Source: Thermoanaerobaculia bacterium (GTDB lineage: Bacteria; Acidobacteriota; Thermoanaerobaculia; Multivoradales; Multivoraceae). From it: a stretch of DNA of 64,000 nucleotides. The stretch is from NCBI GenBank assembly GCA_963664405.1, contig OY761158.1, positions 4,960,001 through 5,024,000 on the forward strand, read 5' to 3'. Within the stretch, counting starts at the first letter, position 1. Every line of letters begins with the position of its first letter. Of the stretch, positions 23,316 through 44,557 are shown one piece after another. A program made the translations under genes and the position numbers. The notes below the pieces were generated by a model. That model saw only the letters and a program-made list of their open reading frames with translations, had not been told where the DNA came from and did not search any database.

Positions 23316-24248
23316 ATGAAGACGATCGTAGCCCTGTTGTCTCTTACAGCTACCGTCGCGGCGTCGGCCCAGGAACCCTGCAAGCCCTCTCGATGGGGGG
23401 CGGACGACGAGATCGGCAACACCAATCTGATCACCACCGAATCGGTGCTTGCGGCGTCGAAGCTGATCACGACCGGCAAGACCTACAGTCTCGGCATCAC
23501 TATCGACAGTACGACGCCCGCCTTCGCGCCACGCGGAATGATGCTGCAGGTGGTCCAGCCGAATCAGCAGCAGGGGCGGGCCGCCTTCCCCAACGCGACT
23601 TACAACGATGACATTTTTCAGGGCTGGTTCGGTATCGGTCCCCAGATCGACGGCCTGGGCCACATCGGCTCTCCCGACGGCGTGTACTACAACTGCAATG
23701 ACGCCAAAGATTTCGCCTTCATCACCGGCTTGACCAAGCTGGGCATCGAGAAGGTGCCGCCCATCGTCGCCCGCGGCATCGTGCTCGACATGGCCGGGCA
23801 TTTCGGCGTCGACCATATGGAAGCGGGCCAGTCTTTCACGGTCGATGACGTCAAGGCAGTGGAAAAGAAGCAGGCGACGCCGGTACAAGAGGGCGACGTG
23901 GTCCTGTTCCACACCGGCTGGACCGACGCCAAGCTGGAGTCGGATCCCGACACCTGGGGGACCGCCGAGCCGGGCCAGAGTGAGGAGGTCGCGCGCTATC
24001 TCGCTTCGAAGAACGTAGTGGCGGTTGGCGCCGACACCTGGGGTGTCGACGTCGTGCCTCCCGCTGATGCGAACCGCCCCTTCCAGGGGCATGTGATTCT
24101 GCTACAGGAGAACGGCATCCACATTCTCGAGACCATGAATACCGGACCGCTCGTGCGCGACGGGGCCTTCGAGTTCATGTTCGTGCTCGGCCAGGCGAAG
24201 GTGAGAGGCGCCGTTCAGATGATCATCAATCCGATCGCGATTCGTTGA
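23316..24248 (+). CDS. cyclase family (kynurenine formamidase-like) protein; island target gene
   Basis: WGADDEIG, QIDGLGH, ARGIVLD, GDVVLFHTGW, VGADTW, INPIAIR. Confidence 0.9.
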   Translation: MKTIVALLSLTATVAASAQEPCKPSRWGADDEIGNTNLITTESVLAASKLITTGKTYSLGITIDSTTPAFAPRGMMLQVVQPNQQQGRAAFPNATYNDDIFQGWFGIGPQIDGLGHIGSPDGVYYNCNDAKDFAFITGLTKLGIEKVPPIVARGIVLDMAGHFGVDHMEAGQSFTVDDVKAVEKKQATPVQEGDVVLFHTGWTDAKLESDPDTWGTAEPGQSEEVARYLASKNVVAVGADTWGVDVVPPADANRPFQGHVILLQENGIHILETMNTGPLVRDGAFEFMFVLGQAKVRGAVQMIINPIAIR

Positions 24249-25348: not shown

Positions 25349-25431
25349 GCCTGTCGCGATGCACCGAATTTCACGACCGCCCGCCCCTCCGCTCAGAGGC
25401 TTATTTACTTTCGGCTATTCTTGTCGCAGTC

Positions 25432-25828
25432 CCAAGGGATGAGATGTCAAGACAAATCTTTCCTAGGCCCTCGACGACTTGATATCGAGCGCGGTACTTT
25501 CCGTTACCGAGCCGGTCCGCTACGCGCAGTTCGGTCCTCAGATCGGTTGTGTGAGCGGTGCGGCGTTGGAGATAAGAAGCGAGTTTTGGTGTCCTACTAG
25601 GTTTGTGGACCAACTTCCCAACGGGGCCTCTTAGGCCATTTCTTCTTTCGGTCCTGTGAGGGGGCCTAGTTTCCGCCTGGTGACTTCCACCGTCTTCGAT
25701 GGGGCCGATGACGACACTGGAGACTTCCCCTCGACCTTTCGATCTCGCTGCCGATCCCGCTCCCGATCCAGGCTCCTGAGCTACGTCAGCCTGCAGACGG
25801 CTCGAGCAAGGAGCGGAGAAGGGGTGGC
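25432..25828 (-). ncRNA. putative seekRNA/bridge-RNA region of the IS110 element
   Basis: ~400-bp non-coding region downstream of the transposase, as in IS1111-type elements; RNA boundaries cannot be determined by eye. Confidence 0.55.
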
Positions 25829-26863
25829 TCAGCTCATGGGTTTGTACTCGCTTTCGGTCTTCCACATCGCCAAAACGATGGCCGCGAGCTTGCGCGCCAG
25901 CGTCAGCTGCGCCAGGTTCGGGTTCGTCCCGGCTTCTAGCATGCGGTCGTAGTGGTTGCGGAAGGGGTTGGGCGCCAACATCGTGCGCGCTGAGAGCGCC
26001 GCGCCCTTGAAGACCGCTTTCAGCGGCCGGTTGGATGCCCGATTCAAACCGCGGGTCTGGATCACCGGTGCGCGCACCCAGTGCCCGGACTGCTGGACCC
26101 AGTCCGAGGAGCTCCGAGTCACGATTCCCAGACCACAGTACGACCAAAACTGCCGCTTGGTGCGAAACCGGTGCGGTGTGACCACCGTTGCGAGCAGGAT
26201 CGCGGCTCGCTTCTTGGCAATCCCCGGTGCGGTCTGCAGCGTGCTCCAGACCGGAAACTGCGCAGCCGCAGCGTGCATCTGTTTCTCTGCTTTCTCGTGG
26301 AGCTCTGCGAGCAAATCGATCTGCTCGCCCCAGATCTCCGCGCACGGACGTCCGCTCGGAGGCAGCTGTTTTACCCACTTCGAGCGATGCCGTGGTAGGT
26401 AGAGGTCGCCGTTGGGGCACGTCACCCCCCGCCGACGGTAAAGGCTGTTCAAGCGCAGCTTCGTGCGAGTCAGATCCTGGGTCAGCTTCGACTCCAGGCG
26501 CACCGCTTCGCGCAAACGAGCCCACTCCTGCCCGGGCTTGTACACCGGCGGGCCCGTCCGATTCGTCCGCAGACGCTCTGCCAGCTCCCGAGCATCGCAG
26601 GCATCGCTCTTCGGACCTCGACGCTTCTCGGGCCGACAGACCACCAGGCGAGCCACCCACGGTGTCAGAATCTCTGAGATCCACTCGCCCCACTCGCCCT
26701 CTTCCACACAGACGTGCAGCGGCCCTCGAAGCTCCCGCACCGTCTTGACCAGCTCCGACCCTTCGGTCGGCACCACCATCTGCTTGACCTTCTTGCCTCG
26801 CGGGCTCACCAACGCCAGCGTGCAGCTGTCGCGGTGGGGATCGATGCCAAGGTATCGTTCCAT
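25829..26863 (-). CDS. IS110-family transposase/recombinase
   Basis: YLGIDPH, CVEE, KSDACDARELA (DEDD RuvC-like), PGIA, SYCGL...SS, LARKLA; the SD lies in a GGTCCTCC...GGAGGACC hairpin. Confidence 0.93.
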   Translation of the reverse strand: MERYLGIDPHRDSCTLALVSPRGKKVKQMVVPTEGSELVKTVRELRGPLHVCVEEGEWGEWISEILTPWVARLVVCRPEKRRGPKSDACDARELAERLRTNRTGPPVYKPGQEWARLREAVRLESKLTQDLTRTKLRLNSLYRRRGVTCPNGDLYLPRHRSKWVKQLPPSGRPCAEIWGEQIDLLAELHEKAEKQMHAAAAQFPVWSTLQTAPGIAKKRAAILLATVVTPHRFRTKRQFWSYCGLGIVTRSSSDWVQQSGHWVRAPVIQTRGLNRASNRPLKAVFKGAALSARTMLAPNPFRNHYDRMLEAGTNPNLAQLTLARKLAAIVLAMWKTESEYKPMS

Positions 26864-27017
26864 CTTGGTCCTCCTTCCTGGGTCCAAGCCCAGGTGTTTG
26901 TGTTTCCCTAAGCTTGACGCCTTCGGGGGAGGACCACTCAAGAATATTCATCGACATCGTCCGGGGGCGCCACCCGCGCGCCATCCCATGATGTTTGCGC
27001 CAGATTTCACGACACGT

Positions 27018-29735: not shown

Positions 29736-29925
29736 TAGATGGGCGGGATCTTATCTCTCACTGACCGGAGTCAGCTGGCAGGAGTCGCTTTCGCCGTGTC
29801 GTCCTCCGCCAGGAATCACGACACCCCCACGAAGCAGAGTACCTCCTGAGTCGGCTCCGTATGGATACCTCAGGAGTACACTCGAGTCTCCGGGAGCATT
29901 CCCGAGTCACGAAAACCAGTTCGTC

Positions 29926-30225
29926 ATGTCCCGTATAGTTCACCGGACCCTTTGGTTGACTCTCTTTCTGGCGATCGCCTTCAATTCTCCACCGGTACTG
30001 ATTCACGCTGGTCCCCTCGGGATTCTTGCTCTGTTGCCTCTCGTCGTTTGGAGCTTGGCCGCGGTGCCCTTTTCCTTCTTTCTTCCGAACCACTTCGGCA
30101 TCACTGACTTCGGGCCGGAACCAGAGACCCCGTTTGCCGTTGGGCTCGTGGTCGCTGTCTGGTGCTTTGTCGCCTGGGTCGGGGCGGTTCTCCTCGTGAG
30201 AATCAAGGAGGCTCGGGAGTCGTGA
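29926..30225 (+). CDS. small membrane protein
   Basis: 99 aa, three hydrophobic segments; GTGA overlap with the next gene. Confidence 0.6.
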   Translation: MSRIVHRTLWLTLFLAIAFNSPPVLIHAGPLGILALLPLVVWSLAAVPFSFFLPNHFGITDFGPEPETPFAVGLVVAVWCFVAWVGAVLLVRIKEARES

Positions 30226-30611
30226 AGGGATCCCTTCCTCGAGGGTTGGCACCGATGTCCTTCAGTTCCGCGTTGGGCTTTGGTATTTGGGCCGCTTCAC
30301 CGTTGATCACCGGTCGTGCAGAGCCCTGGGATGCCGAGATCACGTACTACACGCTCACCTCGGTGATCGGCGCGGCCGTGGTGGGCTACGCCTTCCCCCG
30401 CCATTGGCTGCTCGTCTTCCCCGGAGCCTGGTCAGGCCAGGTGATAGGACTGGCGGTCCTGCCGGGTCTTGACAGGGGATGGCTGCTTCTTGGGGCCATC
30501 ACGACCGGCATCGGCAGCCTACTCTTTCTTCCCGGTTCGGCCCTCGGTGCGCTCGTCGGCCGGCGGACGCGGAAGCGTCGGGGGGCGTCGAAGGAGAAGA
30601 CAGGGGACTAG
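30222..30611 (+). CDS. small membrane protein
   Basis: IWAASPLITGRAEPWDAE motif plus four hydrophobic segments. Confidence 0.7.
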   Translation: MKGSLPRGLAPMSFSSALGFGIWAASPLITGRAEPWDAEITYYTLTSVIGAAVVGYAFPRHWLLVFPGAWSGQVIGLAVLPGLDRGWLLLGAITTGIGSLLFLPGSALGALVGRRTRKRRGASKEKTGD

Positions 30612-30660
30612 CTTGCCTCGGCGGGGAAGGTGTCGTGGTTCGCCAGATTTTGCGACACTC

Positions 30661-30801
30661 TCAGTCGGCGGGCACGCCGCTAGCCAGAACGCCCGAGTCT
30701 TCCAGGTCCTTCTTCAAGTCTTCAAACTCCTTCCGGAGCTTGGCTATCAGCCCCCAGGCAATGATCCCAAATGTCATTCCAATCATTCCAAACACTTCCA
30801 T
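30661..30801 (-). CDS. 46-aa membrane/coiled-coil peptide (not in the ORF track)
   Basis: MEVFGMIGMTFGIIAWGLIAKLRKEFEDLKKDLEDSGVLASGVPAD*; SD GGAG upstream. Confidence 0.65.
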   Translation of the reverse strand: MEVFGMIGMTFGIIAWGLIAKLRKEFEDLKKDLEDSGVLASGVPAD

Positions 30802-30918
30802 TGTGCTTCTCCTTTTCCTTGGTCACAGCAGACTGTCCGGTGTAGCTGTCGGCGCTCGCCTGGCTTGCCCCGTGACTCCAGCCTGAGGGTCGGGCGTGGG
30901 GCTGAAGCGCGACGCCCA

Positions 30919-31350
30919 TCAGAGCGCAAGCGCGCCGAAGTAGACAAAGGGCGCGCTGATGGCGATGCGCACCAGTCCCAACAGGCGCCACCCGATCAGG
31001 CTCCCACTCAGGTCAGAGGGCACGAACGCCTGGATGATGGCTCGGAAAGAGCCTGGGAACAGCACCAACGCTGTTGTCATGAACACGACCAAGACCCAGC
31101 CGATGAGCGACAGGATGAACGCCAAGGTGCTCTGCCCATTCAGGTCCAAGGACCCCTGCTCTGAAGCTCCTGCCCAAATCATCGCCAACCCGAGTGGGAG
31201 CAAGAACGCCCCGAACGTTCGGGTTCGACCGTTCGTCGTGGTCGTCCTAGTGAACCAGCGCAGCACAGACGCTGGCGCGACGAAGACGAAGCCCCCGTAG
31301 CCAACACCGAGGACCCCAACCGCGATGCTCACGATTCCAAGCGCGCTCAC
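30919..31350 (-). CDS. membrane protein (DUF2065-like)
   Basis: Four hydrophobic segments; SD AGGAGG. Confidence 0.7.
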   Translation of the reverse strand: MSALGIVSIAVGVLGVGYGGFVFVAPASVLRWFTRTTTTNGRTRTFGAFLLPLGLAMIWAGASEQGSLDLNGQSTLAFILSLIGWVLVVFMTTALVLFPGSFRAIIQAFVPSDLSGSLIGWRLLGLVRIAISAPFVYFGALAL

Positions 31351-31543
31351 GAGCCCTCCTTAGAGACTTCCTTGGGGGTGGCTGAACAAGCTACCCGAGT
31401 GGCTGCTTTCAGCGACATCGAATGGACAGCATTCTAGCTGGCGGTTCAGGAGCCTGATAGCTATTCAGCTCTTCCTGTCGTCCTTCGCCAGGAAGTGCGA
31501 CAGCCTCAGCCGCCACTCGGGAGAGCGGCGTCTTGAGGCGACC

Positions 31544-33835
31544 TCAGGTCTTAGCCATCTCGCCCAGACCCACCCGGCTCATCGCAGACAGGAAACGAGG
31601 ATCAGACCGAACCGGAGCCGACCAGCGGAACACCAGCCACACCATCGCTATCAGGGTGCCCTCGTCGACGGCCTTCTCCAGGAAGTCCAGGGCCGTATCG
31701 TAGTCCCCTATCCCCAGATAGAGGATACCGACGTAGGCAGGCGGTACGTAGCGCAACTTCGAGATGGCCACGAGCTTGTTCAGATGTTTCTTGGCTTCCT
31801 CTTGCTGGCCCATACCCTCAAGGACGGCGCACAAGCGAGCGTAGACATAGTAGGCCTCCTCACCCGCGACTGATAGTGCCCGCGAGAAAGCGCGGTGGGC
31901 AGCCTCGAGGTCTCCGGTTTCACAATAGGTGTCACCCAGAAACTGGAGCGCGAGATAGTAGTTTCGATCCGTCGTGAGAACACGTTCAAGTTGAGCGAGC
32001 GCCTCGTCGTATCTGCCGGAACTGTAGAGAACCATAGCGATCCCGGTCTGAGAAAGGGGGTCGAGTGGATCCGCCTCGACAGCCCTCTCGAACTGAGCGA
32101 GAGCTTCATCGAATCGCCTCATCCACCACAACCGCCAGGCGGACCAGCGGTGCGCATCTCCGCTGTCAGGACTCAAGGCCAGCGCCCGCCCGAAGGAGCT
32201 CTCGGCTCCGGCCCAGTCCCTTCTGTACGTCACTCTCATGATGCCTCGCATCACATGTACTTCCGCCAAGCTGCTATTCAACTCGATGGACCGATCGATG
32301 GCGGACCGCGCGATGGGATACGCCTCCGTCGGGGGGATCTCGAACATCGGGCCGGCCCCCCCCATGAACATCGTTGCACCCGCAAGCGTGAAGTAAGCCT
32401 CCGCGTACTCCGCATCGAGCTCGATCGCCTGCTTCGAGTATTCGACGGCTGTCTGAAGGTCCGGAACAGTGAGTTTGTGGAAGTGATAGCGCGCTTTCAG
32501 ATAGAGCGTGAAGGCCTCTCGGTTTCTCGTGCGCCGCTTCACGAGATTCTCGCTGTCGGTGCCGAACAGCTGCACCCTGAGCTCGTCGACGATCGCTAGC
32601 GTGATCTCGTCCTGGATTGCGAAGACATCTTCCAGCTCTCTGTCATAGCGCTGGGACCACAGGTGGTAACCATCGCTGACATTGACGAGCTGCGCCGTGA
32701 CCCGAATCCGCGCGCCAGCCTTTCGAACGCTTCCTTCGAGCACGGATCGGACCCCCAGCTCCTTCCCGATCTCGCGAACATCGACATCGCGGCCTTTGAA
32801 CGAGAAGGCCGAAGTCCGTGCGACGACGTGCAGGTTCTCGAGCTGTGTCAAGGCGTTGATGAGCTCCTCCGCCATGCCGTCACAGAAATACTCCTGTTCC
32901 GGGTCGGCGCTCATGTTGGCAAAGGGAAGCACAGCGATCGAAGGTCGCTTCCCGTGGTGTTGCTCTCCTCGACCGCCCCCGGATCTCTCTTCCAGGGCCT
33001 CGAGCTCGATCGCTAGGTCTCGGGCGGATTGCCACCGTCGATCCGGATTCTTGTCGAGGCATCTGCTCACAATCCAATCCAGTCGAGGCGGGGATAGAGG
33101 TTGGTGTCTCGACGGGGGATCTGGATCCGAGCGCAGAATGGAAGCGATCAGATCCGCCTGGCTGTCTCCGCTGAAGGGCCGCGATCCAGAAACCAACTCG
33201 TGAACGATGCAGCCGAGCGCCCAGATATCAGCCCGAGCGTCGACTTGTCCGCCCTGCAACTGCTCCGGAGCCATGTAGGGCATCGTGCCGAAGATGTGTC
33301 CTTCCTCCGTTATCGCTGCCGCCATTGTGGTCGCCTCGGTGTCGACTACCTCGCGGTCGGCACTGCCTCGCGCAAGGCCGAAGTCGACAACCTTCGCTCC
33401 CGTTACAGTCAGCATCACATTGCCCGGCTTGAGGTCGCGATGGACGACAGCCCTCCGATGAGCCGCCTCGATCGCCTCGGCGATCTCCCCCGCGACTCGA
33501 AGAGCCTCCTTGATGGGGAGCGCACCCTTTTTCAGCCGATCTTCGAGCGTTTCCCCCTCTAGGTATTCCATGACGAGGTAGTCGAGCCCGTTCTCTGAGC
33601 CGACGTCGTACAGCGTGCATATGTTTGGGTGCTGCAGCTGGGAGATGGTCTTCGCCTCCCGCTCGAAACGCCTCTTGAAGGTGGCGTCCTTGCTCAGTGA
33701 GGAAGGCAGGACCTTGACGGCGACATCACGGCCGAGACGGGTATCACGAGCCCGATACACCTCCCCCATGCCGCCCTTGCCGCGCAGCTCGACGATCTCG
33801 TAGGGACCGAGGCGGGAGCCTGGTTCTAGAGCCAT
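31544..33835 (-). CDS. Ser/Thr kinase with TolB-N-like domain and TPR repeats (kinase 2)
   Basis: HRDLKPGNVML, DFG, YMAPE; SIAVLPFANMSADPEQEYFCDG; TPRs. Confidence 0.95.
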   Translation of the reverse strand: MALEPGSRLGPYEIVELRGKGGMGEVYRARDTRLGRDVAVKVLPSSLSKDATFKRRFEREAKTISQLQHPNICTLYDVGSENGLDYLVMEYLEGETLEDRLKKGALPIKEALRVAGEIAEAIEAAHRRAVVHRDLKPGNVMLTVTGAKVVDFGLARGSADREVVDTEATTMAAAITEEGHIFGTMPYMAPEQLQGGQVDARADIWALGCIVHELVSGSRPFSGDSQADLIASILRSDPDPPSRHQPLSPPRLDWIVSRCLDKNPDRRWQSARDLAIELEALEERSGGGRGEQHHGKRPSIAVLPFANMSADPEQEYFCDGMAEELINALTQLENLHVVARTSAFSFKGRDVDVREIGKELGVRSVLEGSVRKAGARIRVTAQLVNVSDGYHLWSQRYDRELEDVFAIQDEITLAIVDELRVQLFGTDSENLVKRRTRNREAFTLYLKARYHFHKLTVPDLQTAVEYSKQAIELDAEYAEAYFTLAGATMFMGGAGPMFEIPPTEAYPIARSAIDRSIELNSSLAEVHVMRGIMRVTYRRDWAGAESSFGRALALSPDSGDAHRWSAWRLWWMRRFDEALAQFERAVEADPLDPLSQTGIAMVLYSSGRYDEALAQLERVLTTDRNYYLALQFLGDTYCETGDLEAAHRAFSRALSVAGEEAYYVYARLCAVLEGMGQQEEAKKHLNKLVAISKLRYVPPAYVGILYLGIGDYDTALDFLEKAVDEGTLIAMVWLVFRWSAPVRSDPRFLSAMSRVGLGEMAKT

Positions 33836-33991
33836 GAGTTGAATAGAAGTCTACCGCCCACGGGCGCTATGGCCGAGCACGAGGATCACACCCGTGTCGC
33901 AGAGCACCCACAAAGACGACATCGCGCCGATTTTGGGGTCTATCGTCCTTCAGCTATGCCTGTCGTGGTCCGCCACATATTGCGACATCTC

Positions 33992-36682
33992 TCAGTCGGT
34001 TGGCACGAGGCGTTTCAGCTCCTCTAGCCAATTCAGGACGACGGTAATCGTCATGGTTTCGGTCTCCTCTACCTCAGGAATTGCAAGCATGAGGAAGCGG
34101 CCGTCGCGGGCGACATCGTAGTTCGGAAAGTGATCTTCCTGTGAGAAATATGGGTGGCTCCAGAGCTCAATCGGCTCGTCATGTAGCAGTTCGGGTTCGG
34201 TCTCGATTTCCACAGCCATCATCCGGTCCCGGACGCGGTAGTACAGCTCGTCTCCCGTCGATGACCACACCGGCTGACTACCGCCGCCTTGGGATATTTG
34301 TTCCGCCCTTTCCGTTCCAGGATAGCGTCGAACCCAGACCTCGGACTGCCCAGTCTCATCAGAGCTATAGACGATCCAACCCCCTTGTGGAGCGAATTTC
34401 GGAGAAGCGGCATCGTAGGTCGCGTCCGTCAGTGGCTCGGGCAAGCCTCCCCGGGGCAGGACCCATATCCTCGAACCGTCGGCAGATACTTCCCGGAATG
34501 CCAGGGATTCCCCATCGGGTGACCACGATCGGGGCATCTGATAGTTGTCGCGAAGAAGCACTTCTGTGCGTACGGCATCTTCATCCACACGCTTCTCGAA
34601 CATGTCCCCGTTCACGGTATAGGTCAGTGTTTCACCGTCGGGTCTCCATGCAGGGTTGTACTCGATCTCGTCCTCCCCCACCGGGAACGCCCCGCTCCCG
34701 TCGATGTTCATGACCCAGACCTTGCCGATTCCGTGAGCGTCGGTTCGGGAGGTCGCGAGCCGATCGCCCGCCGGAGAGATCTGCAGATCGAAGTACAGCC
34801 CCAGTGGCGCATCGATGAGCGTCTCGTGGCCCTCTCGATCCACCCAGGCGGGCTGTCTTTCCAGACCCATTGTGCCTTGCACAAAAACCAGATCTCCGGT
34901 CGGTGAGAGATCGAAAGAAGCGTGCTCCAGCCCCGCACTATTGCCGGCTGCGATGCCGTCCTCCGCCGTCTGTATTCGACCCATTTCAAGAGTGTCCAGG
35001 TCGAATGAAACCAGCCGTAGGTTCCCGTTCTGCGTAAATGCAATGTATCCGGGCGACAGATATCGTGGCTCCGATCCCGACAGGCCGAGATCGACCCAGT
35101 CGCCTGTGTCGAGCGACAAACGAGCGATTCGCGATCCGTCCTTCGTTCCAATTGCAAACAGCACCGTCGTGCCGTCAGGCAGGAATTCAGGATGTCCGTG
35201 AGCGATCTGACCGCCTCCTGGATCCGGAATTGTGAGCGGTCGGGGAGCACCTCCCGTTAGGGAGACTTGGACGAGCCCGGATGGAATGCCATTGCCGAAG
35301 ATGATCAGGTCATCCGGTCCCCAGGCGACGCCGTAGACAGGCCCTACGCTGGCGATATCCAGTGGTGCGCCACCTCCAACTGGAACTCTTTGTAGTTTTC
35401 CGTTGGCCGTAAACCCCACCCACGCACCATTGGGGGAGAAGAAAAGATCTTGCGCCCCTTCGGTTCCGGCCAGAAGCGTACCCTCGCCTTCGGCCATGGC
35501 TCGGACGAATATCTGACGGACCGGTTCACGTCCTTCTTCTCCGGAGGGTGCTACCCGGGTTGAGAGGTAGGCGATGCGTGACCCGTCTGGCGAGATAGCA
35601 ATCGGACCATCGACCCCAGACCCGATCCCCTGATTTGCGCCCAACGGAACGTCAAACGAAAAGCGAACCGTTGGAGAGTAAACGGACCGATCGGTGGCGA
35701 AGTTCCATGCGGCGAATCCGGCCACCAGCACGCCGAGCGCGAAAGCGATGCCCCATGTCAGGCCACTTGGCGATCTGGTTCGAGTCGCGGTCTGGGAGTG
35801 AGCTCCCGGCTCCTCAGCGTCGGCAGCGTCATCGCCGACCGCCTGAAGCTCGATGCCCACATCCAAGGCCGACTGCCAGCGTCGCTCGGGGTCTTTGGCC
35901 AGACAGCGGGACACCACCCAGTCGAGACGTCGTGGAGCGAGCTCTTGGACCACGCTCAGCGGTCGAGGCTCGGAGGCCATGATGGCGGTGGTCAGACTCG
36001 CCTGGTTGTCGCCCTGGAAGGGCCGCTCGCCGGTGATCATCTCGTAGAGCACGCAGCCCAGGGCCCAAATGTCGGTGCGGGCATCGGTGTCCTTGCCTTC
36101 GAGCTGTTCCGGTGCCATGTAGAGCTGCGTGCCGAGGATCGAGCCCTGACCGGTGATCGGCTGCATCCTCGTTGGTGACTGAGTGTTGGCCGCTTGTGGT
36201 TCCGGCTCGATGCTCTTCGCCAGTCCGAAGTCCAGCACTTTGACGCCGGTCTTGGTCAGCATCACGTTGCCGGGCTTCAAATCCCGATGCACGATTTCTG
36301 CCTTGTGGGCGGCGTCGATCGCTGCGCCGATCTGGCTGCCGATCTCGAGCGCTCGGGCGATCGGTAGAGCGCCCTTCTCGAGGAGCTTCTCCAGGGTCTC
36401 GCCTTCCGCCACCTCCATGACCAGGAAGCGAGTGCCGCCGGCTGCTTCGAAGCTATAGAGCGTGGCGATGTTCGGGTGCTTGAGGCCGGCCAGGACCTTG
36501 GCCTCGCGCTCGAAGCGAGCCAGCCGGTCAGCATCTTCGGAAACCTCATCGAGAAGCAGCTTGATCGCTACTTCCCGCCCGAGCTTGGTGTCTTTGGCTC
36601 GGTAGACCTCTCCCATTCCCCCAGCACCGAGGGAAGAGACGACCTCATAGTGGCCAAGCTTCGTGCCTGCTTCTAGCGCCAT
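33992..36682 (-). CDS. Ser/Thr kinase with TM helix and PD40 propeller (kinase 3)
   Basis: Kinase motifs; ISPDG/FSPNG/WSPDG repeats; ends NWLEELKRLVPTD. Confidence 0.95.
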   Translation of the reverse strand: MALEAGTKLGHYEVVSSLGAGGMGEVYRAKDTKLGREVAIKLLLDEVSEDADRLARFEREAKVLAGLKHPNIATLYSFEAAGGTRFLVMEVAEGETLEKLLEKGALPIARALEIGSQIGAAIDAAHKAEIVHRDLKPGNVMLTKTGVKVLDFGLAKSIEPEPQAANTQSPTRMQPITGQGSILGTQLYMAPEQLEGKDTDARTDIWALGCVLYEMITGERPFQGDNQASLTTAIMASEPRPLSVVQELAPRRLDWVVSRCLAKDPERRWQSALDVGIELQAVGDDAADAEEPGAHSQTATRTRSPSGLTWGIAFALGVLVAGFAAWNFATDRSVYSPTVRFSFDVPLGANQGIGSGVDGPIAISPDGSRIAYLSTRVAPSGEEGREPVRQIFVRAMAEGEGTLLAGTEGAQDLFFSPNGAWVGFTANGKLQRVPVGGGAPLDIASVGPVYGVAWGPDDLIIFGNGIPSGLVQVSLTGGAPRPLTIPDPGGGQIAHGHPEFLPDGTTVLFAIGTKDGSRIARLSLDTGDWVDLGLSGSEPRYLSPGYIAFTQNGNLRLVSFDLDTLEMGRIQTAEDGIAAGNSAGLEHASFDLSPTGDLVFVQGTMGLERQPAWVDREGHETLIDAPLGLYFDLQISPAGDRLATSRTDAHGIGKVWVMNIDGSGAFPVGEDEIEYNPAWRPDGETLTYTVNGDMFEKRVDEDAVRTEVLLRDNYQMPRSWSPDGESLAFREVSADGSRIWVLPRGGLPEPLTDATYDAASPKFAPQGGWIVYSSDETGQSEVWVRRYPGTERAEQISQGGGSQPVWSSTGDELYYRVRDRMMAVEIETEPELLHDEPIELWSHPYFSQEDHFPNYDVARDGRFLMLAIPEVEETETMTITVVLNWLEELKRLVPTD

Positions 36683-36780
36683 GCGAGTGGCGAGAGTCTA
36701 CCGCTCGACTGCCTTCAACGACTTATAGGCCGATCGCGATACTTGTCGCGGTCCGCCACCAAAGGCGACAAGGCCCGCGC

Positions 36781-39459
36781 TCACGAGCCCCCCTCGGAGA
36801 ACATCTCGAGCACCTTGGCCCGCCAGTTCTGGACCAGGATCACTTTTTCCTCCTGGTCCTCAGCGGCCTCGACCATCAGGAAGCGGCCGTCCGGATGCAC
36901 ACCGTAGTTGATGATGCCTAGGTTCGGACCCCTTCGGAACCGATCTTCGAACAGGGTCTCAGGCCGCCCGATGACCAACTCACTGCCCTTCTTCTCGATC
37001 GGGATGGTCATCATGTGGGTCGGGCCGCGGTAGAAGATCTCGTCTCCCGAAGAGGACCATGCCGCTTCCTGGCCGCCTTCGAAGGTGAGCTGGCGCGGCT
37101 CCCCTGGGCCCGGGAAGGGGATCAGCCACAGCTGCGACATAGCGTCGACGGGGTCGAATCCGGCGTAGGCGATCCAGTCCCCATCGGGGTGGAAGCCTCC
37201 CGAGCGAACGAAGACACTGTCGTCGACCACAGAGCGTACCTCGCCGCTACTGCGGTCGAGGGCGACAAACCCCTCCTCGAAGAAGTGGTAGAGCAACACC
37301 CAGCGCCCGTCGGCGGAGACGCCGAAATAGGATTGAGCCTGCTCGGAGGGCAGTAGCCTCTGCGCCGGGGCGCTACGATCGGCCGGCTGGAAAAACACCT
37401 GTGCGTAGTCGTCGACGCGATTCGCCACGAAGAAGATCTCTTTGCCGTCTGGCGGGATCTCTGTCGCGACCGAAGTGGAGCCCGTCTGAGCCGGTCGGCT
37501 CCACGAGCCGGTGGCGAGGTCGAGGGCCCATTGCTCGTTGCCGTCGCCGGCCGAGTTTCGCGAGTGGACCGAGATCCTGTGACCATCGAGGGATGGCCTG
37601 GGAACGGCGAAGGCCTTGATCTCAGGAGCCACCGGCTCGACCTCGCCGCCGCCGCGGTTCACCCACACCAGCCGAGACTGGTTGCTCACCTGCCCTCTCA
37701 CGTAGACGAGATCACCGGACTTTTGAACGTCGAAGCGACCAATGTCGACCGGAATCCCGGGCACGCGAGCTACCTCGGTTTCGACTTGTCGAGGCGGAGC
37801 CGCGAGCTCTCCGGTCACCGAGTCGATGGGAGCCGCCCACAGCGCTCCGCTTCGATAGAAGGCCATCAACCCCGGTTCGACGTAGGTGGCCGCGGCGCCT
37901 TGCGTGAGCACCCGCCCCTCGCCGGTCCCCAGATCCACGGCGACGAGGTCGGCCCAGAACCCTTCTCTTCGATCCTGCGGCAGAGTCGCCAGCAGAGTTT
38001 GACCTCCGGGGAGGAGAGCGGTTGCCATGCCATCACCGATACGCTCGGGCTCGCCGCCGGTAACCGCGACTCGCCAGATCTCGGCTTCGTTTGGGTTAGT
38101 GCGCGATGGTACATGAGTGTAGTAAATGGAGCCGTCCTCTCCCCACGGCCCTGGACTAAAGACGTTCTCCGCGATCGTCGTGGCTCCTCCTCCCTCGACA
38201 GCTACCGTTTTCAGCTTGCCACTGCTGTCAACGAAGACCAGATTCCCGCCGTCGGGGGAGAAGAAGGCAAATCCTCCAGCTCCCTCAGTCCCCGAGATCG
38301 GTTGCGGAAACAGCGAATCGAGGGAGCGACGAGCCAGGATAGATCCGCCACCGGCCTGCTGTTGCGGGAATACCAGAGTACGCCCGTCAGGCGAGATCGT
38401 CGCGAGTCCTTCGTCGGCCGCGATGTCGAGGGTCGTCACGGTCCAGACCTCCGCGCCGCCCTCGACCGCCGGCACATTCGAGCCGCGAGGAAATGCGAAG
38501 CCGATTACCATCCCGACCAGGAGAACGAGGCCCCCGGCCAGGGCGGCGACTCGCGGACGCAGGGCCCGGTCGGCGGTGCCTCCTGTAGGCGCCGCCGTCT
38601 CGGTCCCCTGGTCGAGGCCGCCCAGCTCCAGCGCCACATCGCGCGCCGACTGCCAACGCCGATCGGGATCCTTGTCGAGACAGCGCTCGATCACCCAGTC
38701 GAAGCGGGCCGGCGCGAGCGGCTGGAGCTCCGACAGAGCGCGCACCCGACCGGTCATGATCGACGCGATCAAGCTGGCCTGAGAGGTCCCCTCGAACGGC
38801 CTTGCCCCGCTGGCCATCTCGTAAAGCACGGCGCCAAGGCCCCAGATGTCGCTGCGAGTGTCTGCCTCCTTACCTTCGAGCTGCTCGGGCGCCATGTATT
38901 GCAGCGTGCCGAGAATCGAGCCTTCGCTGGTCAGTGGCTGGGTGATGGTCGGCGTCTGCGTGCTCCCGCTAAGGGCACCGACCTGGACTCCCTTGGCGAG
39001 GCCGAAGTCGAGCACCTTGGCTCCCTCGCGAGTCAACATCACATTGCCGGGCTTGAGATCGCGGTGGACCACTCCCTGGCGATGAGCGGCGTCGATGGCC
39101 TCGGCGATCTGGGATCCGATCGTCGCCACCTCATCCAGCGGCAGGGCGCCGCGTCGAAGCCGGTCCTCGAGGGTCTCTCCCTCCAGGTACTCCATGACCA
39201 GGTAATCGACACCGTCCTCGCTGCCGATGTCGTAGAGCGTGCAGACATGGGGATGGGTCAGCTGCGAGATGGTCTTCGCTTCGCGCTCCAGCCGCTGACG
39301 GTAGAGCGTGTCCTGCCCGAGCTCCTCAGGTAGCACCTTGATGGCGACATCCCGCTCCAGGCGTGTGTCACGACCCAGGTACACCTCTCCCATGCCGCCC
39401 TTGCCGCGCAGCTCGACGATCTCGTAGGGACCGAGGCGGGAGCCTGGTTCTAGAGCCAT
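36781..39459 (-). CDS. Ser/Thr kinase with TM helix and PD40 propeller (kinase 4)
   Basis: Start MALEPGSRLGPYEI at 39459; kinase motifs; propeller repeats. Confidence 0.95.
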   Translation of the reverse strand: MALEPGSRLGPYEIVELRGKGGMGEVYLGRDTRLERDVAIKVLPEELGQDTLYRQRLEREAKTISQLTHPHVCTLYDIGSEDGVDYLVMEYLEGETLEDRLRRGALPLDEVATIGSQIAEAIDAAHRQGVVHRDLKPGNVMLTREGAKVLDFGLAKGVQVGALSGSTQTPTITQPLTSEGSILGTLQYMAPEQLEGKEADTRSDIWGLGAVLYEMASGARPFEGTSQASLIASIMTGRVRALSELQPLAPARFDWVIERCLDKDPDRRWQSARDVALELGGLDQGTETAAPTGGTADRALRPRVAALAGGLVLLVGMVIGFAFPRGSNVPAVEGGAEVWTVTTLDIAADEGLATISPDGRTLVFPQQQAGGGSILARRSLDSLFPQPISGTEGAGGFAFFSPDGGNLVFVDSSGKLKTVAVEGGGATTIAENVFSPGPWGEDGSIYYTHVPSRTNPNEAEIWRVAVTGGEPERIGDGMATALLPGGQTLLATLPQDRREGFWADLVAVDLGTGEGRVLTQGAAATYVEPGLMAFYRSGALWAAPIDSVTGELAAPPRQVETEVARVPGIPVDIGRFDVQKSGDLVYVRGQVSNQSRLVWVNRGGGEVEPVAPEIKAFAVPRPSLDGHRISVHSRNSAGDGNEQWALDLATGSWSRPAQTGSTSVATEIPPDGKEIFFVANRVDDYAQVFFQPADRSAPAQRLLPSEQAQSYFGVSADGRWVLLYHFFEEGFVALDRSSGEVRSVVDDSVFVRSGGFHPDGDWIAYAGFDPVDAMSQLWLIPFPGPGEPRQLTFEGGQEAAWSSSGDEIFYRGPTHMMTIPIEKKGSELVIGRPETLFEDRFRRGPNLGIINYGVHPDGRFLMVEAAEDQEEKVILVQNWRAKVLEMFSEGGS

Positions 39460-39614
39460 GAGTTGGCGACATCTTACAGTCGCCCGGTGGATCAGCGGCT
39501 CAGAGCTCGAATTGTGTTGTCGCACCTCACCATATTTCACGACAGCCCCTCTCCTCAGAGGCTTATTCGTTTTCGGCTATACGTGTCGTGGTGCGCCCCA
39601 AAGTGCGACATCTT

Positions 39615-42303
39615 TCAGTCTGTGGGCACGAGGCGCTTCAGCTCCTCGAACCAGTTCTGGACCAGGACGACGTCATTGCGCTCGCCCCCCTCGGTCGTCT
39701 CCAGTGGTTTGACCATCAGGAACCTCTCGCCGTCCGGGTGGATGTCGTACATGCGACCGACGGAGACGGCATAGTTTCCCGTGAAGATCACTTCAGGTTT
39801 CCCGGGCTCGAACGAGGGCTCGGTCCTGACCGGCACCGCCATCAACCGATCGCCGGCACGATAGAAGATCTCGCTGCCGTCCGGCGACCACAGCGGTTCG
39901 GTGCCGCCTCCGGCCGAGATCGGAAAACGGCCACCGGCTTCTACGTCGGGAAACGGCCTCACATAGATTCGGTCTTCGTCCGCCGATTCGTCCGACTGGT
40001 AGACCAACCACCGGCCATCGGGTGAGATTTCTCCATTCAGCTCACGGAACTCCGAGGCTAGAAGCGGTTTCGGCGATCCTTCGCCTTCCAGCGACAGCAC
40101 TCCCAGATCGAACCCTGACGTCACTCCGACGCGGTAAAGCAGGGCCTTGCCGTCTGGGGAGATCGACGACGGATATAGATACTCCGCGAACTCGATAAGG
40201 AGCTTCACTGTTCCCGTTCCGTCAAACGCTCGCTGGTAGAACCCCAGGGTCCCGTCACGGTCGGAGACGAACACCACTTCCCGGCTGTCACGAGTCCAGA
40301 CCGGATACACGTCTATTGCCGGATCAGCGGTCAGCCGGTCCAGAGGAGACTCCCGCGTGAGGTCCCAGATCCACACGTCCTGGTCTTCATCGCGGGAAGA
40401 GACCGCCACCCGCTGTCCATCCGGAGAGATTCGGGGATAGATGTAGAACCGGGGTGGGGCCGAGAGAGCCGCCTCTCGTCCGTCGCGTCCCACCCAGACA
40501 AGGGTCCGTTGCGCCCCTCCCCCCATGCCACCGGTGACGTACACCAAGGACCCGTCCTGCGAGAAGTCGAAGTTCACAACACCAAAGGTCTTGGTGTTGA
40601 CGCCTTCTAGGACAGGGACCGGATCTCCCCGCACTTCCAGACTCCCCGCATCGAAGGCCACCGCATGAAGCGTACCGTTCAGCCCATAGACCAGGTGCCC
40701 GGTGGGCACGTACCGGGCACCGGCACCTCCAAAGACCAGGTCCTTCCGCTCCCCGGTGGTGAGAGATTGAGCCACGATCTGCGCGTCGTCGACGTTCGAG
40801 CTCGTAAAGACCGCAAAGAGAACGGCTTCGCCACCCGGTAGAACCTCGGGAAAACGATAGGAAAGCTCTCCTTTATCGGGATCTAGCGCGACCAGCCGCT
40901 CCAGTTCACCGCCTCCCCCCGACACCCGATAGAGCCCCTCGTTGAGGAAGCCAAGGACAATGGTGTCGTCCGCGCCCCAGCTCGCGCCGAGAAGAATAGA
41001 GGGTAGTTCGCACAAAGTCACCGTTGGCCCCCCGAGAATGGGGACTTTCTTAAGAGTCCCGCCGGACTCGAAGGCGACCCAGGCCCCGTCGGGCGAGAGG
41101 AAGGGAGACTCAGCGTCCTCCGTTCCTCGCAGCTCGGAGCCAACGATGCGGTCCACCCAGCGAACATAGAGAGAGCCTTCGCTCTTGTAGACCACCACCC
41201 GACCATTGCGTGCCATCGCCAGATCGCGAGCAATGGGAAGAGAACCCGTCATCGGCGCGCTGGGAGCGGCGCTCAGCACCGCACGAACGACGGGGCGCTC
41301 GGGTGGTGCGGGCTTCAGGGTCCAGACGGCGATGCCAGCGATCACCGCGCCGGCAGCGAGGGTGGCGAGGGCCAAAGGTACAGGACTGCGCTCTTCCGCC
41401 GCGGCCGCGCCGGGCGTCGGCTCATCGCTCTCGGGAGCCTCGATGACGGTTTCGATTTCCATCAGGGCATCACCGATGTCTCGCAGCCGTTGTCGTGGAT
41501 CCTTGCGTAAACACCGCTCAAGCAATTCGCGTAGTCTTCGAGGAACGCTTGCGGGGAGCGGGTCCCAGCTCGGCACATCGCGCAACACAGCGCCTACTGT
41601 CTCCATCGCATCTTCGCCCTCGAACAAGCGTTGTCCAACAAGGGCCTCGTAGAGACAAACACCGAAGGCCCAGACGTCGGTGCGCTTGTCGACTGCCTTC
41701 CCCCGAGCCTGCTCGGGCGACATGTAGGCAGCAGTCCCGAGGATTTCACCGCGCTGTGTCGCAGCTAGCGTCAGCGTTGGCGACATCGACATCGAGGCGT
41801 CACCCGACTCGCCGACATCTCCGACCATTGCCTTGGCCAACCCGAAGTCAAGGATCTTGACGTTGCCGTCGTCGGTGACCTTGATGTTGGCGGGCTTGAG
41901 GTCGCGATGAATGACGCCCTTGTCGTGAGCAGCTTCTAGCCCTTCCGCGATCTGGAGGAACAGCGGCAGAGCCTCCTCGACCGCAATAGGCCCTCGACTG
42001 ATCCTCTCCGCAAGGGTCTCGCCCTCGACCAGTTCCATGACCAGGAAATTGGTGTCTCCGTCCTTCTCGAAGCCGTGGAGCGTAGCGATGTTGTTGTGGT
42101 TCAGAGAAGCAAGGACGCGGGCTTCCCGCTCGAACCTCGCGAGCCGTTCTGGATCGGTCGACACCTCCTCCAACAGCAGCTTGATCGCGACCTCACGACC
42201 GAGCTTCGTGTCCTTCGCCCGGTACACCTCTCCCATGCCTCCCGCACCGAGGGAAGAGACCACTTCGTAGTGGCCGAGCTTTGTGCCTGCTTTCTAATGC
42301 CAT
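39615..42303 (-). CDS. Ser/Thr kinase with TM helix and PD40 propeller (kinase 5); extra base near codon 4-5
   Basis: ATG GCA TTA GAA A GCA GGC has an extra A at 42291-42293 compared with the paralogs' MALEAGTKLGHY; the rest is intact. Confidence 0.9.
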
Positions 42304-42494
42304 CGACTGAGCGACATTCTACCGGCAGCCGCCAAGGGCCGATTTCGAGGTGTCGCGATCCACCAGATTCTGCGACACTGACGATGTTGTCCATTGCACC
42401 TTCCACTAGAAAAGGTGCCAGTATCAACCCCGCCGAGGGCGTGGGCTCCAGGAGCCTGAATTCGGCTAGCCCGGCTAAATAGGAGATCTGGGAC

Positions 42495-44189
42495 ATGAAT
42501 GCACGGAGAATCCCGATACTCGTCTTGATGCTGACGCTGTTTCTGGGCGCCTGCGGAGCGTTCGAGCCGGATGAGGCAGTGCCAGTGGAGACGGAAGAGA
42601 GGCCCAACTTTCTTCTAGTCGTTGCCGACGACATGGGATACACGGACACAGGCCCCTTCGGCGGTGAGATCGAGACCCCGAATCTCGACCGGCTCGCAGC
42701 CTCCGGGGTCCGTTTCGCGGACTTCCACGTATCCATGTCCTGCTCGCCGACGCGCGCGATGATGATGTCTGGCATGGACAACCACCTGGCCGGTCTCGGC
42801 AACATGGGGGAGCTCATCACGCCCAATCAGCGCGGCAAACCGGGTTACGAGGGTTACCTCAGCCGCGATGTCATCAGCCTGCCTGAGGCGCTCGGGAGTG
42901 GCGGGTACCACACCTACATGGCCGGAAAGTGGCACCTGGGACACGAGCCGGATCAGCGTCCCTTCGCACGGGGCTTCGAGCGCTCGCTGGCGTTGATGTA
43001 CGGTGGCGCGAGCCATTGGAATGACAGGCATGGGCTCATTGCCGCGCAGGATCCGGTCATCTACACGCGCAATGGCGAGAAGCTCGAACAACTGCCCGAG
43101 GATTTCTACTCGAGCAAAAACTACGCCGACTTCCTCATGGAGTCGATTCGAGAGAACCACGGCGACGGCAAGCCCTTTCTTGCCTACCTCGCCTTCACAG
43201 CGCCTCATGACCCTCTGCACGTGCCCGAGCCTTGGCTCAGCAAGTACCGAGGGCGGTACGACGAGGGCTACGAAGCTCTGAAGGCAAGTAGGGCTGAAGG
43301 CGCGGCCCGGGCCGGCGTCGTGCGGGCCGGCGCCCCGCTGCCCCAACGCCACTCGATGACTCCGGCCTGGGACACCTTGAGCCCCGAGGAGAGAACCCGG
43401 CAGTCCCGGATGATGGAGGTCTATGCGGGGATGGTCGACAACATGGACCACCATCTCGGCCGAGTGCTGGATTTCCTCGACGACATCGGCGAGCTCGACA
43501 ACACCGTCATCATTTTCTTTTCGGACAACGGGCCCAATCCGTGGGACAGCGAGGATTATCCCGGCAATCGGGACGGGAACTTCATGGACCTTTTCGACAA
43601 CAGTCTCGACAACCTCGGCAAGCCCGGCTCGAACGTCGCCTACGGAAGCGGCTGGGCTCAGGCGAGCGCCGGTCCCTACAGTTACTTCAAGATGACGGTC
43701 GCCGAGGGAGGCACACGGAGCCCTCTGATTGTCGCTGGACCGCAAGTGAACAACGGCGGACGGATCAACGATACCCCCGTAACCGCCATGGATGTGATGC
43801 CGACCCTCCTAGACATAGCGGGCATCGAACACCCCGAGACGTTCAACGGCAGACGGGTCAAGCCGATGATGGGCCGCTCGATGAAAGGCGTGGCAGCCGG
43901 CACCGCAGAGCGCGTGCACCCGGAGGACACACTCTTCGGCCACCAGGCCTTCGAGGAGCACGAGCTTTCCGGCGAGATGCTGGGCGGCAAGTTCGTGCGC
44001 CGCGGCGATTGGAAGGCGCTCTTCGTGAGCCGGCCGTATGGCCCGAACGAGTGGCAGCTCTTTGATCTCGCCGCCGACCCCGGCGAAACCGATGACCTGG
44101 CGGGTGAGCATCGGGAGCTGTTGGAGGAACTGACTGCGGGCTGGGACCAGTACGCGAACGACGTGGGGGTTGTCCCACCGGAGGGCTAA
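42495..44189 (+). CDS. AtsA-like arylsulfatase, lipoprotein
   Basis: Lipobox LGAC, RPNFLLVVADDMG, CSPTR, GKWHLG, FSDNG. Confidence 0.93.
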   Translation: MNARRIPILVLMLTLFLGACGAFEPDEAVPVETEERPNFLLVVADDMGYTDTGPFGGEIETPNLDRLAASGVRFADFHVSMSCSPTRAMMMSGMDNHLAGLGNMGELITPNQRGKPGYEGYLSRDVISLPEALGSGGYHTYMAGKWHLGHEPDQRPFARGFERSLALMYGGASHWNDRHGLIAAQDPVIYTRNGEKLEQLPEDFYSSKNYADFLMESIRENHGDGKPFLAYLAFTAPHDPLHVPEPWLSKYRGRYDEGYEALKASRAEGAARAGVVRAGAPLPQRHSMTPAWDTLSPEERTRQSRMMEVYAGMVDNMDHHLGRVLDFLDDIGELDNTVIIFFSDNGPNPWDSEDYPGNRDGNFMDLFDNSLDNLGKPGSNVAYGSGWAQASAGPYSYFKMTVAEGGTRSPLIVAGPQVNNGGRINDTPVTAMDVMPTLLDIAGIEHPETFNGRRVKPMMGRSMKGVAAGTAERVHPEDTLFGHQAFEEHELSGEMLGGKFVRRGDWKALFVSRPYGPNEWQLFDLAADPGETDDLAGEHRELLEELTAGWDQYANDVGVVPPEG

Positions 44190-44557
44190 GGCTTGCTCCG
44201 CCTCCGCCGTCGAAACGGGCTCGGTCCGAATTTGAAGGGCTAAGGGAGGTGCCACCCTTCGCCTTCCCATGGCACCTTCCACAGCGAACTATGCAAGTGG
44301 ACTTCTGGCTTGCGATGTCGCAGAGCACCACAGATCGCGACACGCCTGCTCCCAGACGCCCGTAGACGTTGAGCTCTCGTAGTGGCGTGGGGTGAAAAGG
44401 CGACATCTTGTCGCAATTTTTGCTTAGGTGCGACACCAGACTTCTCTAAGCCACTGATTACAAGCTAGATCCGTGCAGGCCCTAAGCCTGTAAGAGCTCG
44501 CGGATCTGGTATGTTCACGATCATCAATCCGATTGCGATCCGTTGAGGAGGGACCCA

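Follow-up and report, generated by a model that had tools for sequence, protein, structure and literature searches.

A divergent IS1111-type insertion sequence with a candidate guide RNA splits a 27-bp repeat of cassette arrays in a Thermoanaerobaculia bacterium

Results

An insertion sequence inside a 27-bp site

The DNA analysed here, called the window, is a stretch of 64,000 nt from a Thermoanaerobaculia bacterium (GTDB lineage Bacteria; Acidobacteriota; Thermoanaerobaculia; Multivoradales; Multivoraceae), namely positions 4,960,001-5,024,000 of the forward strand of contig OY761158.1 in assembly GCA_963664405.1. Coordinates without a prefix are positions in this window, and those marked C1 are genome contig coordinates. 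In the window, the two parts of a 27-bp repeat that recurs in arrays of gene cassettes are separated by 1566 bp, and the only long open reading frame (ORF) with a family assignment between these half-sites is a transposase gene on the minus strand. We interpret the segment as, very probably, a site-specific, RNA-guided insertion sequence (IS) of the IS1111 branch of the IS110 family, inserted in a 27-bp recombination site. Its principal features are as follows.

25431..26996, minus strand: IS1111-type insertion sequence, 1566 bp, delimited from a second identical copy and the junctions of relatives
25422..25430, plus strand: left 9 nt of the interrupted 27-bp site, TGTCGCAGT, from the sequence and the junction tables
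26997..27014, plus strand: right 18 nt of the interrupted site, G followed by CGCCAGATTTCACGACA, from the same sources
25832..26863, minus strand: transposase gene (tnp), 344 aa (P0001), from its translation and from Pfam, NF033542 and PDB matches
25436..25441, no strand: subterminal inverted repeat, 3' (right) arm, GGGATG on the plus strand, from the sequence and the junction comparison
26982..26987, no strand: subterminal inverted repeat, 5' (left) arm, CATCCC on the plus strand, from the same evidence

The initial annotation had described a precise insertion of an IS110/IS1111 element into a cassette site, with ends at 25432 and 26997. The insertion is borne out by the Pfam domains of the transposase, by the 27-mer that is restored on excision and by the lack of any visible target duplication, whereas the ends probably need to be moved by 1 nt. 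TGTCGCAGTC lies at 25422-25431 and CGCCAGATTTCACGACA at 26998-27014, with 1566 bp between them, and excising 25432-26997 joins the halves into a 27-nt TGTCG-N17-CGACA sequence. Since excision of 25431-26996 likewise yields a 27-mer, the IS ends are defined by restoration only to within 1 nt. The comparison of copies favours the second solution: the base beside the 5' (transposase-proximal) IS end varies among them (C, C, C, G, A, G, G, G, A, A) in the way that position 10 of the site varies, and the base beside the other, right end is constant within a clade. On the strength of the variable left-end neighbour we place the IS at 25431-26996, the insertion point thus probably lying 1 nt to the left of 25432-26997. 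The site is thereby split into 9 + 18 nt; in transposase orientation, TGTCGCAGT is the 9-nt right flank ACTGCGACA. The right half-site ends 3 nt from the stop codon of a kinase gene at 27018-29735 on the minus strand.

The transposase gene starts with an ATG at 26863, downstream of a GGAGG ribosome-binding site, and its stop codon is at 25829-25831. P0001 matches PF01548 (DEDD_Tnp_IS110; 1.1e-10, 42 bits, cut-off 29) and PF02371 (Transposase_20; 4.1e-10, 40.3 bits, cut-off 21.3). The region of the catalytic serine, GLGIVTRSSS, aligns to GLTPRRYESG of IS621 with the serine kept, and the protein therefore has the domains that define the IS110 family, a DEDD/RuvC-like N-terminal domain and PF02371 with the catalytic Ser. 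Residues 4-337 of 344 align to the NF033542 model, 'IS110 family RNA-guided transposase'; 11 other IS110-family genes in the genome exceed the cut-off of this model, and the present clade scores lowest. The only PDB matches are IS621 (8wt6, E 5.4e-6, in two short stretches) and ISCro4 (9t56). Among 8000 candidate proteins that were scored, 4216 matched at E <= 1e-20, and the clade is common in environmental data.

Passages of PMC11187229 and PMC11208160 describe the IS1111 layout as a long non-coding region downstream of tnp combined with subterminal inverted repeats, whose length is put at 7-17 bp in the latter and at usually 11-13 bp in the former. The present element has the short left and long right non-coding ends of this layout (133 nt 5' of tnp and 398 nt 3' of it), and its insertion is site-specific and without target duplication. 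The subterminal inverted repeat GGGATG/CATCCC proposed in the initial annotation lies exactly where it had been placed. Although only 6 bp long in the window type, and 7-9 bp in a sister clade (clade 2, below), the repeat appears to be real, because both arms change together, in three variants: GGGATG/CATCCC in the window type, GGAATG/CATTCC in the relative L051 and TAGAAAT/ATTTCTA in clade 2. The terminal extensions beyond the repeats are asymmetric, 9 and 5 nt, a difference of 4, as in the published 7 and 3. Judging from its layout, its insertion and the RNA described below, the element is a divergent IS1111-type member, one that falls short in inverted-repeat length, in its C-terminal motif and with respect to the NCBIfam cut-off.

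The copies and several relatives share the target

A second genomic copy, 100% identical, lies at C1:779072-781929 with different flanks. An ISL3-family element (L002 3043-4326; C1: ~780614-781897) interrupts this copy 24-32 nt before the right end; it encodes a 411-aa transposase (Pfam DDE_Tnp_ISL3, 4.9e-76) and has an 8-bp duplication, ATCTTTCC. The same genome holds a 68% relative with a frameshifted transposase (L003). It also holds two solo left-end fragments, L004 1501-1591 (C1:1144819-1144909, 91 nt, 98%) and L005 1501-1610 (C1:3962570-3962679, 110 nt, 87%), each adjoining a half-site and both truncated at about the same internal point. Metagenome contigs supplied 13 close relatives. 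Those at 77-99% identity make up clade 1, the window type, and those at 63-66%, together with L003, clade 2. A DNA search of 60 related genomes yielded fragments only, in 8 other genomes, among them L008 and L023; a contig search with the single transposase protein yielded one locus only, the same as L007; and a protein search of 400 genomes of the phylum found relatives in 13 other genomes, at 36-49% identity. L060 (30% identity) was excluded from the analysis.

In transposase orientation, clade 1 junctions read TGTCG-N7-N-GG(C/T)G-N / A(A/G)(A/G)CATCAT...TTGG(G/A) / ACT(G/A)CGACA. The exact 27-mer (18 + 9 nt, with TGTCG and CGACA both present) is rebuilt in 6 of the 7 elements that have both flanks, and all three near-identical copies (the window copy, the second genomic copy and L048) sit in TGTCG-N17-CGACA-type sites. 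Junctions with a single end are more mixed: three of the eight left-end-only junctions are canonical, one has AGTCG (one mismatch), one is degenerate and three are unrelated, and the five right-end-only junctions comprise one canonical, one near-canonical, two unrelated and one, L008, in a different target. The expectation of the initial annotation, that homologues would rebuild the consensus cut at the same position, thus holds for these six elements, but some relatives lie in non-canonical sequence. Clade 2 inserts in the same site family in the opposite orientation relative to the CGCC/CACC core. Its cut, too, leaves 18 nt on the side of the 5' TGTCG and 9 nt on that of the 3' CGACA; in site coordinates, the cut falls between positions 9/10 (or 10/11) in clade 1 and 18/19 in clade 2.

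Two further observations concern the placement of copies. One metagenome contig (L054 1-740) carries two window-type IS copies of one orientation, which occupy adjacent sites some 660 nt apart. Both full IS copies of the genome occupy the first CGCC-type site of their array (A5 in the window; A3 at 779 kb), at the end far from the special terminal site described below.

Because the outermost 5 nt on either side of the site form an inverted repeat, the TGTCG.../...CGACA halves could be taken as the terminal inverted repeats of the element itself, with the intact 27-mers as its footprints or miniature derivatives. We consider this extremely unlikely: the two identical copies have different half-sites (left TGTCGCAGTC versus TGTCGTTTC, and right flanks that diverge after CGCCA), 88 intact sites stand against 2 full IS copies, and the sites lie at the borders of unrelated genes, with hybrid halves that are specific to the cassette.

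A putative promoter across the joined ends

Two hexamers near the IS ends would form a promoter if the ends were joined.

25445..25450, minus strand: TTGACA, -35 half of a putative circle-junction promoter, 14 nt from the right IS end
26988..26993, minus strand: CATCAT, -10 half of the same putative promoter, 3 nt from the left IS end

Over the joined ends, the spacer measures 14 + 3 = 17 nt (13 + 4 if the ends were 25432-26997). TTGACA lies 14 nt from the right end in clade 1 and 13 nt in clade 2, CATCAT 3 and 4 nt from the left end, respectively, and the spacing of 17 nt across the joined ends is kept in every clade. [C/T]ATCAT occurs 3-4 nt from the IS start in 14 of 14 left ends. TTGACA is equidistant in all right ends seen, though these ends were located with the TTGACATC motif, so that finding it there is in part a consequence of the search; neither the spacing nor the left-end hexamer depends on that choice. 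The TTGACA-17 bp-CATCAT arrangement on the joined minus-strand ends, already pointed out in the initial annotation, is therefore conserved, and the promoter itself is a prediction. No joint corresponding to an empty site or a circle junction was found in four public runs, all of them contigs, which break at repeat boundaries and are uninformative on activity.

A candidate guide RNA in the right end

The 3' non-coding end contains two predicted RNA modules.

25658..25732, minus strand: RNA module 1, putative target-binding, with basal stem GAGGG/CCCUC, internal loop and distal hairpin, from RNAalifold (11 relatives) and pair counts
25708..25716, minus strand: guide 1, UGUCGUCAU, in the 5' loop strand of module 1, complementary to the 9-nt right target flank
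25669..25678, minus strand: guide 2, AGGCGGAAAC, in the 3' loop strand of module 1, from the comparison of flanks and IS starts
25607..25654, minus strand: RNA module 2, putative donor-binding, with stem GGACC/GGUCC, internal loop and hairpin GGCC-UAAGA-GGCC, from RNAalifold and the junction comparison

In an alignment of the 3' ends of 11 relatives (A1; L053, L055 and L061 were omitted, with <110 nt of the RNA region on their contigs), the stems are conserved and the loops variable, and RNAalifold returns two modules, each a stem, an internal loop and a hairpin. The consensus fold has 34 pairs, with 97.1% of cells paired compared to 32-50% with slid partners; 10 of the 34 pairs have changes on both sides, and none of 500 shuffles reaches the observed values. 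No Rfam family matched at E <= 1 in the window between 24000 and 46000, so the RNA is not a curated family.

Guide 1 matches the right flank of its own element at 9/9 positions in L051, L003, L056 and L008 and at 8/9 in L058; poor fits are found in L023 (6/9) and L049 (3/9), both of which were kept in the counts. Guide/flank matches total 66 of 81, compared to 52.0 on permutation (31 of 20000 permutations as good), and at the four variable guide-1 positions of the eight site-targeting elements they amount to 22 of 32, compared to 16.2 (352 of 20000), figures that overstate independence because the elements are kin. Guide 2 has the top-strand sequence of the core of the left flank (GGCG), followed by that of the opening 4 nt of the IS. 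Its GGCG or GGUG tracks the flank core in four of four clade-1 elements (GGCG in the window copy, L048 and L050; GGUG in L051), and its last 4 nt equal the IS start in four covarying variants, AAAC, AGAC, AGTC and AATC. The 3' strand of the module-2 loop (CCGUUGGGAAGU, 25613-25624) is similar to the right IS end followed by the left IS start: its variants UUGGG, UUGGA and AUGGA match right ends TTGGG, TTGGA and ATGGA, and then continue into the left-end start. Along the RNA, guide 1 precedes guide 2, and the two abut or overlap at the insertion point. According to passages of PMC11187229, having the complement of the top strand first is the strand order of IS1111 seekRNAs; in silico, the right-end RNA thus has the strand order and the overlap in the target expected of an IS1111 seekRNA or bridge RNA.

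L008 (G041:C33) combines a conserved RNA scaffold with the guide GCACCUCCU and the flank AGGAGGTGC, which match at 9/9 outside the site family. We read L008 as a naturally retargeted element, and it is the telling case for RNA guidance.

From what is known of the family, we propose the following course of events. The IS would excise as a circle, and the joined ends would set TTGACA 17 nt from CATCAT; the resulting promoter would read through the transposase gene into the 3' non-coding end, which would give a two-module bridge/seek RNA. In the module-1 loop, a 9-nt strand would pair with the last 9 nt of the target, NNNNCGACA, and the second strand would represent the left flank core (GGCG/GGTG, the reverse of site CGCC/CACC) and the first 4 nt of the IS, whereas the module-2 loop strand, resembling the joined IS ends, would bind the donor. 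The DEDD recombinase would then exchange strands between the circle junction and the site, 18/9 nt from the TGTCG ends, without duplication.

Several observations weigh against this reading. The second genomic copy rebuilds 26 nt (18 + 8) rather than 27, and five relatives have visible flanks without a canonical half-site (left flanks of L052, L055 and L057; right flanks of L049 and L023). The NF033542 score, 118.5 bits, is under the curated cut-off of 140, and the GL-P----S(t)G motif reads GLGIVTRSSS, with P replaced by I and G by S, the Ser being present. Regarding the RNA, most compensatory changes stem from one divergent sequence, L008, and the window RNA folded alone reaches only z = -1.64. 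In clade 2, guide 2 fits the left flank poorly past the IS-derived bases (7/10), and no convincing complement was found in the IS ends for the 5' strand of the module-2 loop. None of the RNA, the circle junction and the empty site has been observed. Most directly, guide 1 of the window copy fits its own flank at 6/9 positions (+1 G:U), that of the second copy at ~6/9 and that of the near-identical L048 at 7/9, although UGUCGUCAU, which all three share, would fit 2 genomic sites at 9/9 and 8 sites at 8/9. The claim that the IS is programmed against the site is accordingly upheld by the two-module RNA and by loops that are complementary to the flanks and covary with them, and less well by the guide of the window copy. 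The imperfect fit despite better sites implies that the four inner positions are tolerant or that the pairing rule is incompletely understood; either most of the specificity lies, as it seems, in CGACA and the core, or the inner positions tolerate mismatches.

Some of these shortcomings lend weight to another explanation, in which the protein, or a DNA structure, recognizes the TGTCG...CGACA ends and the matches in the 3' end are ancestral leftovers. It would account for the 6/9 fit of the window copy; the invariant CGACA contributes five of the guide-1 matches in every site-targeting element, and the kinship of the elements inflates the covariation statistics. We nevertheless regard it as improbable, given that L008 pairs an unrelated guide with an unrelated flank at 9/9, that L051, L003 and L056 each reach 9/9 with three different inner tetranucleotides, and that the GGCG/GGUG strand tracks the flank core in all four elements; furthermore, RNA guidance has been demonstrated experimentally for IS1111 members, as stated in parts of PMC11187229.

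The target site and its arrays

The interrupted site belongs to an array that continues on both sides of the IS.

25352..25378, plus strand: neighbouring CACC-type site with 1 mismatch, ending in CGACC, 70 nt upstream of the interrupted site
29797..44435, plus strand: rest of the array, 11 exact sites in a single orientation, from site matches and family scans

The window contains 14 matches to TGTCG-N17-CGACA (<=1 mismatch), compared to 3.77 expected, and 0 of 100 shuffles reach 14. Genome-wide, there are 118 matches with N17 and 6-28 with the other spacings from N14 to N20; with a CRCC core (CGCC or CACC), 88 matches remain (55 + 33), compared to 0 for the reversed control pattern, and the 60 related genomes have 0-5 such sites each. 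Over these 61 genomes, the site is almost restricted to the present one and to G008. The abundance of the site, suggested in the initial annotation, is evident from these counts. The CACC-type site at 25352..25378 is the usual partner of a CGCC-type site, the two types often being 66 nt apart.

The sites form about seven one-directional arrays in the genome, that of the window (25352-44435) and six elsewhere on C1, near 17.6-41.4 kb, 599-618 kb, 748-779 kb, 3.945-3.980 Mb, 5.457-5.475 Mb and 6.507-6.523 Mb. In the window array, the cassettes encode Ser/Thr kinases with PD40 or TPR domains, small membrane proteins and a sulfatase; over all arrays they include many Ser/Thr-kinase paralogues (PD40/TPR) of ~2.75 kb, small-membrane-protein cassettes of ~0.83 kb and a sulfatase. 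The window array terminates in a distinct site at 44409-44435, and the array ends (44316-44435 in the window, and others) share one composition: a CACC-type site, ~55 nt, CGAAAGGCGACA, 3 nt and a distinct 27-mer, TGTCGCGATATGTGCGTGGGTGCGACA or a variant. This special terminal site could be a primary, attI-like site.

Some cassettes recur almost unchanged in another array, next to other neighbours, for instance window 29824-30630 and C1:767754-768556 (99.1% over the full length) or C1:28188-31902 and 755842-759556 (99.8%). At five of five cassette boundaries, identity begins at site position 11 upstream and ends after position 15-17 downstream, from which it follows that exchange lies within CGCCA. 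At its upstream edge a cassette therefore has the right part of a site, and at its downstream edge the left part of the following site; the CACC-type site and a 39-nt linker travel inside the cassette. The hybrid sites around near-identical cassettes look like the signature of site-specific recombination and argue for real crossovers, in keeping with the earlier suggestion that the site is functional.

The 1.57-kb segment itself sits in a cassette array between two site halves and might accordingly be a gene cassette moved by the cassette recombinase rather than a self-mobile element. This is very improbable: whole sites, switching within CGCCA (positions 11-15), form the boundaries of cassettes, whereas the IS is bounded by halves of one site and has its own inverted repeats, transposase and RNA, and the sister clade cuts between positions 18 and 19. 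As the cuts of the IS lie at 9/10 or 18/19 and not at 11-15, we take the IS to be a parasite of the site and not the enzyme that shuffles cassettes; a DEDD/bridge-type recombinase, as opposed to a tyrosine recombinase, is unlikely to move the cassettes.

A different view of the target would make it a REP-like extragenic palindrome, as for ISPa11, ISPpu9/10 and IS621, instead of a cassette recombination site. IS110/IS1111 members often target repetitive extragenic palindromes (REPs), as passages of PMC11187229 indicate, and 12 Y1-transposase-like genes exceed the Pfam cut-off in the genome. Yet the sites are clustered in ~7 one-directional arrays and not dispersed, the switch of identity falls within the site core in each of the five cassette boundaries examined, and no Y1-like gene lies in or beside an array. 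The arms (positions 6-10 / 18-22) are no more complementary within a site (1.62 of 5) than in random pairings (1.68). Dispersed hairpins and a Y1 transposase flanked by them were thus not found; RAYT genes were absent beside the arrays, the Y1-like genes lying elsewhere. We consider a REP-like target unlikely. Folding of the site as a hairpin was also rejected for the two ends of a single cassette, whose arm complementarity is 1.67.

As for the enzyme that would act on a cassette site, no integron integrase (IntI) was found in the genome, the best TIGR02249 match reaching 122 bits where the cut-off is 265 and leaving model positions 181-235 unmatched; an IntI with its specific insertion next to an array was likewise not found, nor was a recombinase conserved at the array ends. 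We give about even chances to the proposal that the sites are the crossover sites of an undescribed, IntI-independent cassette-shuffling system, characterized by seven arrays, a CGCCA crossover and conserved terminal sites, with the divergent IS1111 clade as its specialised parasite.

The arrays collect several kinds of IS. A multi-copy pair, made up of a 286-aa tyrosine recombinase and a 408-aa protein, lies in or beside them (C1:34950-37055, 41711-43816, 597007-599112, 615271-617376 and near 887 kb). The 408-aa protein is presumably IS91-like, as judged from its N-terminal sequence, and the 286-aa recombinase, a candidate for the array-end enzyme, was rejected because we read it as part of another IS together with this partner. 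Directly at an array edge, a single recombinase-like gene was found, a 179-aa tyrosine-recombinase ORF with the catalytic domain only (C1:5456062-5456601, minus strand), which ends 89 nt before the first site of the 5.457 Mb array. In the four public runs, summed contig depth over window 26988-27074 is 360-1900, compared to 2-10 on either side; this segment consists of the 3' end conserved among the kinase paralogues, together with the site, and is present on very many contigs. Genes with a Pfam 'Putative cyclase' domain flank the window array, at 44543-45628 (by scan) and at 23316-24248 (judged from sequence only), and may be traces of an ancient duplication or of the locus of the original insertion.

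Discussion

The IS is in itself ordinary for its known kind, whereas its target site looks real and undescribed; in an open-access library nothing was found on the 27-bp site or on such cassette arrays, which is not proof of their being unpublished. The element represents a branch of RNA-guided DEDD recombinases that is divergent and widespread in the environment, and it brings with it a small series of naturally retargeted guides. As this series spans two clades in opposite orientations and one element aimed elsewhere, it should be useful for working out the pairing rules of IS1111-type bridge RNAs. The IS also supports, independently, the view that the 27-bp repeat is a discrete unit that can be recognised. 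Its insertion destroys one site and should freeze the adjoining cassettes together, as IS1111-attC elements do in integrons. If the cassette system is real, the IS clade would be the counterpart of the IS1111-attC group, and its guides would read out the constrained positions of the site.

On IS1111-attC elements, PMC11187229 cites Tetu and Holmes (2008) and Post and Hall (2009). Members of this group (ISKpn4, ISPst6, ISPa25), as passages of PMC11187229 have it, have a seekRNA in the downstream end and insert at a fixed position in the site that separates cassettes, without duplication. The present element shares the IS1111 type, the RNA in the downstream end, the fixed position in a cassette site and the lack of a duplication. 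It differs in its target, a 27-bp TGTCG-N17-CGACA sequence and not a folded integron attC, in a genome without an IntI over the cut-off; arm complementarity extends to 5 nt only, and no Rfam family matched between 24000 and 46000. Its transposase is also divergent, and two sister clades use the site in opposite orientations.

The arrays that it occupies resemble integron arrays in that cassettes are one-directional, carry parts of two sites and recur in identical form with different neighbours. They differ in having no IntI and no attC-type hairpin, and in a 27-bp site with two core classes (CGCC, CACC), genes in both orientations and seven arrays per genome, each ending in a conserved special site. 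With the targets of ISPa11 and ISPpu9/ISPpu10 the site has in common that it is an abundant short repeat with inverted ends, but here the repeat is clustered in arrays, lacks hairpin complementarity past 5 nt and shows crossover hybrids.

Among RNA-guided relatives, IS621 forms a promoter at its circle junction and has an RNA with two loops that match the target and the joined ends, as described in parts of PMC11208160. The DEDD recombinase, the two-loop RNA for target and joined IS ends and the putative junction promoter are alike in the present element, and IS621 is its best PDB match. However, the RNA lies here in the right end downstream of tnp and in IS621 in the left end, the order of strand matches is that of IS1111, and sequence similarity is very low. 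For ISEc11 and ISXne4, passages of PMC11187229 report natural retargeting by replacement of loop bases on conserved stems, and a junction promoter for ISEc11. The elements described here would share this loop-base retargeting and, putatively, the junction promoter; they differ in targets and hosts, and have at least five guide variants, including an orientation flip on one site family.

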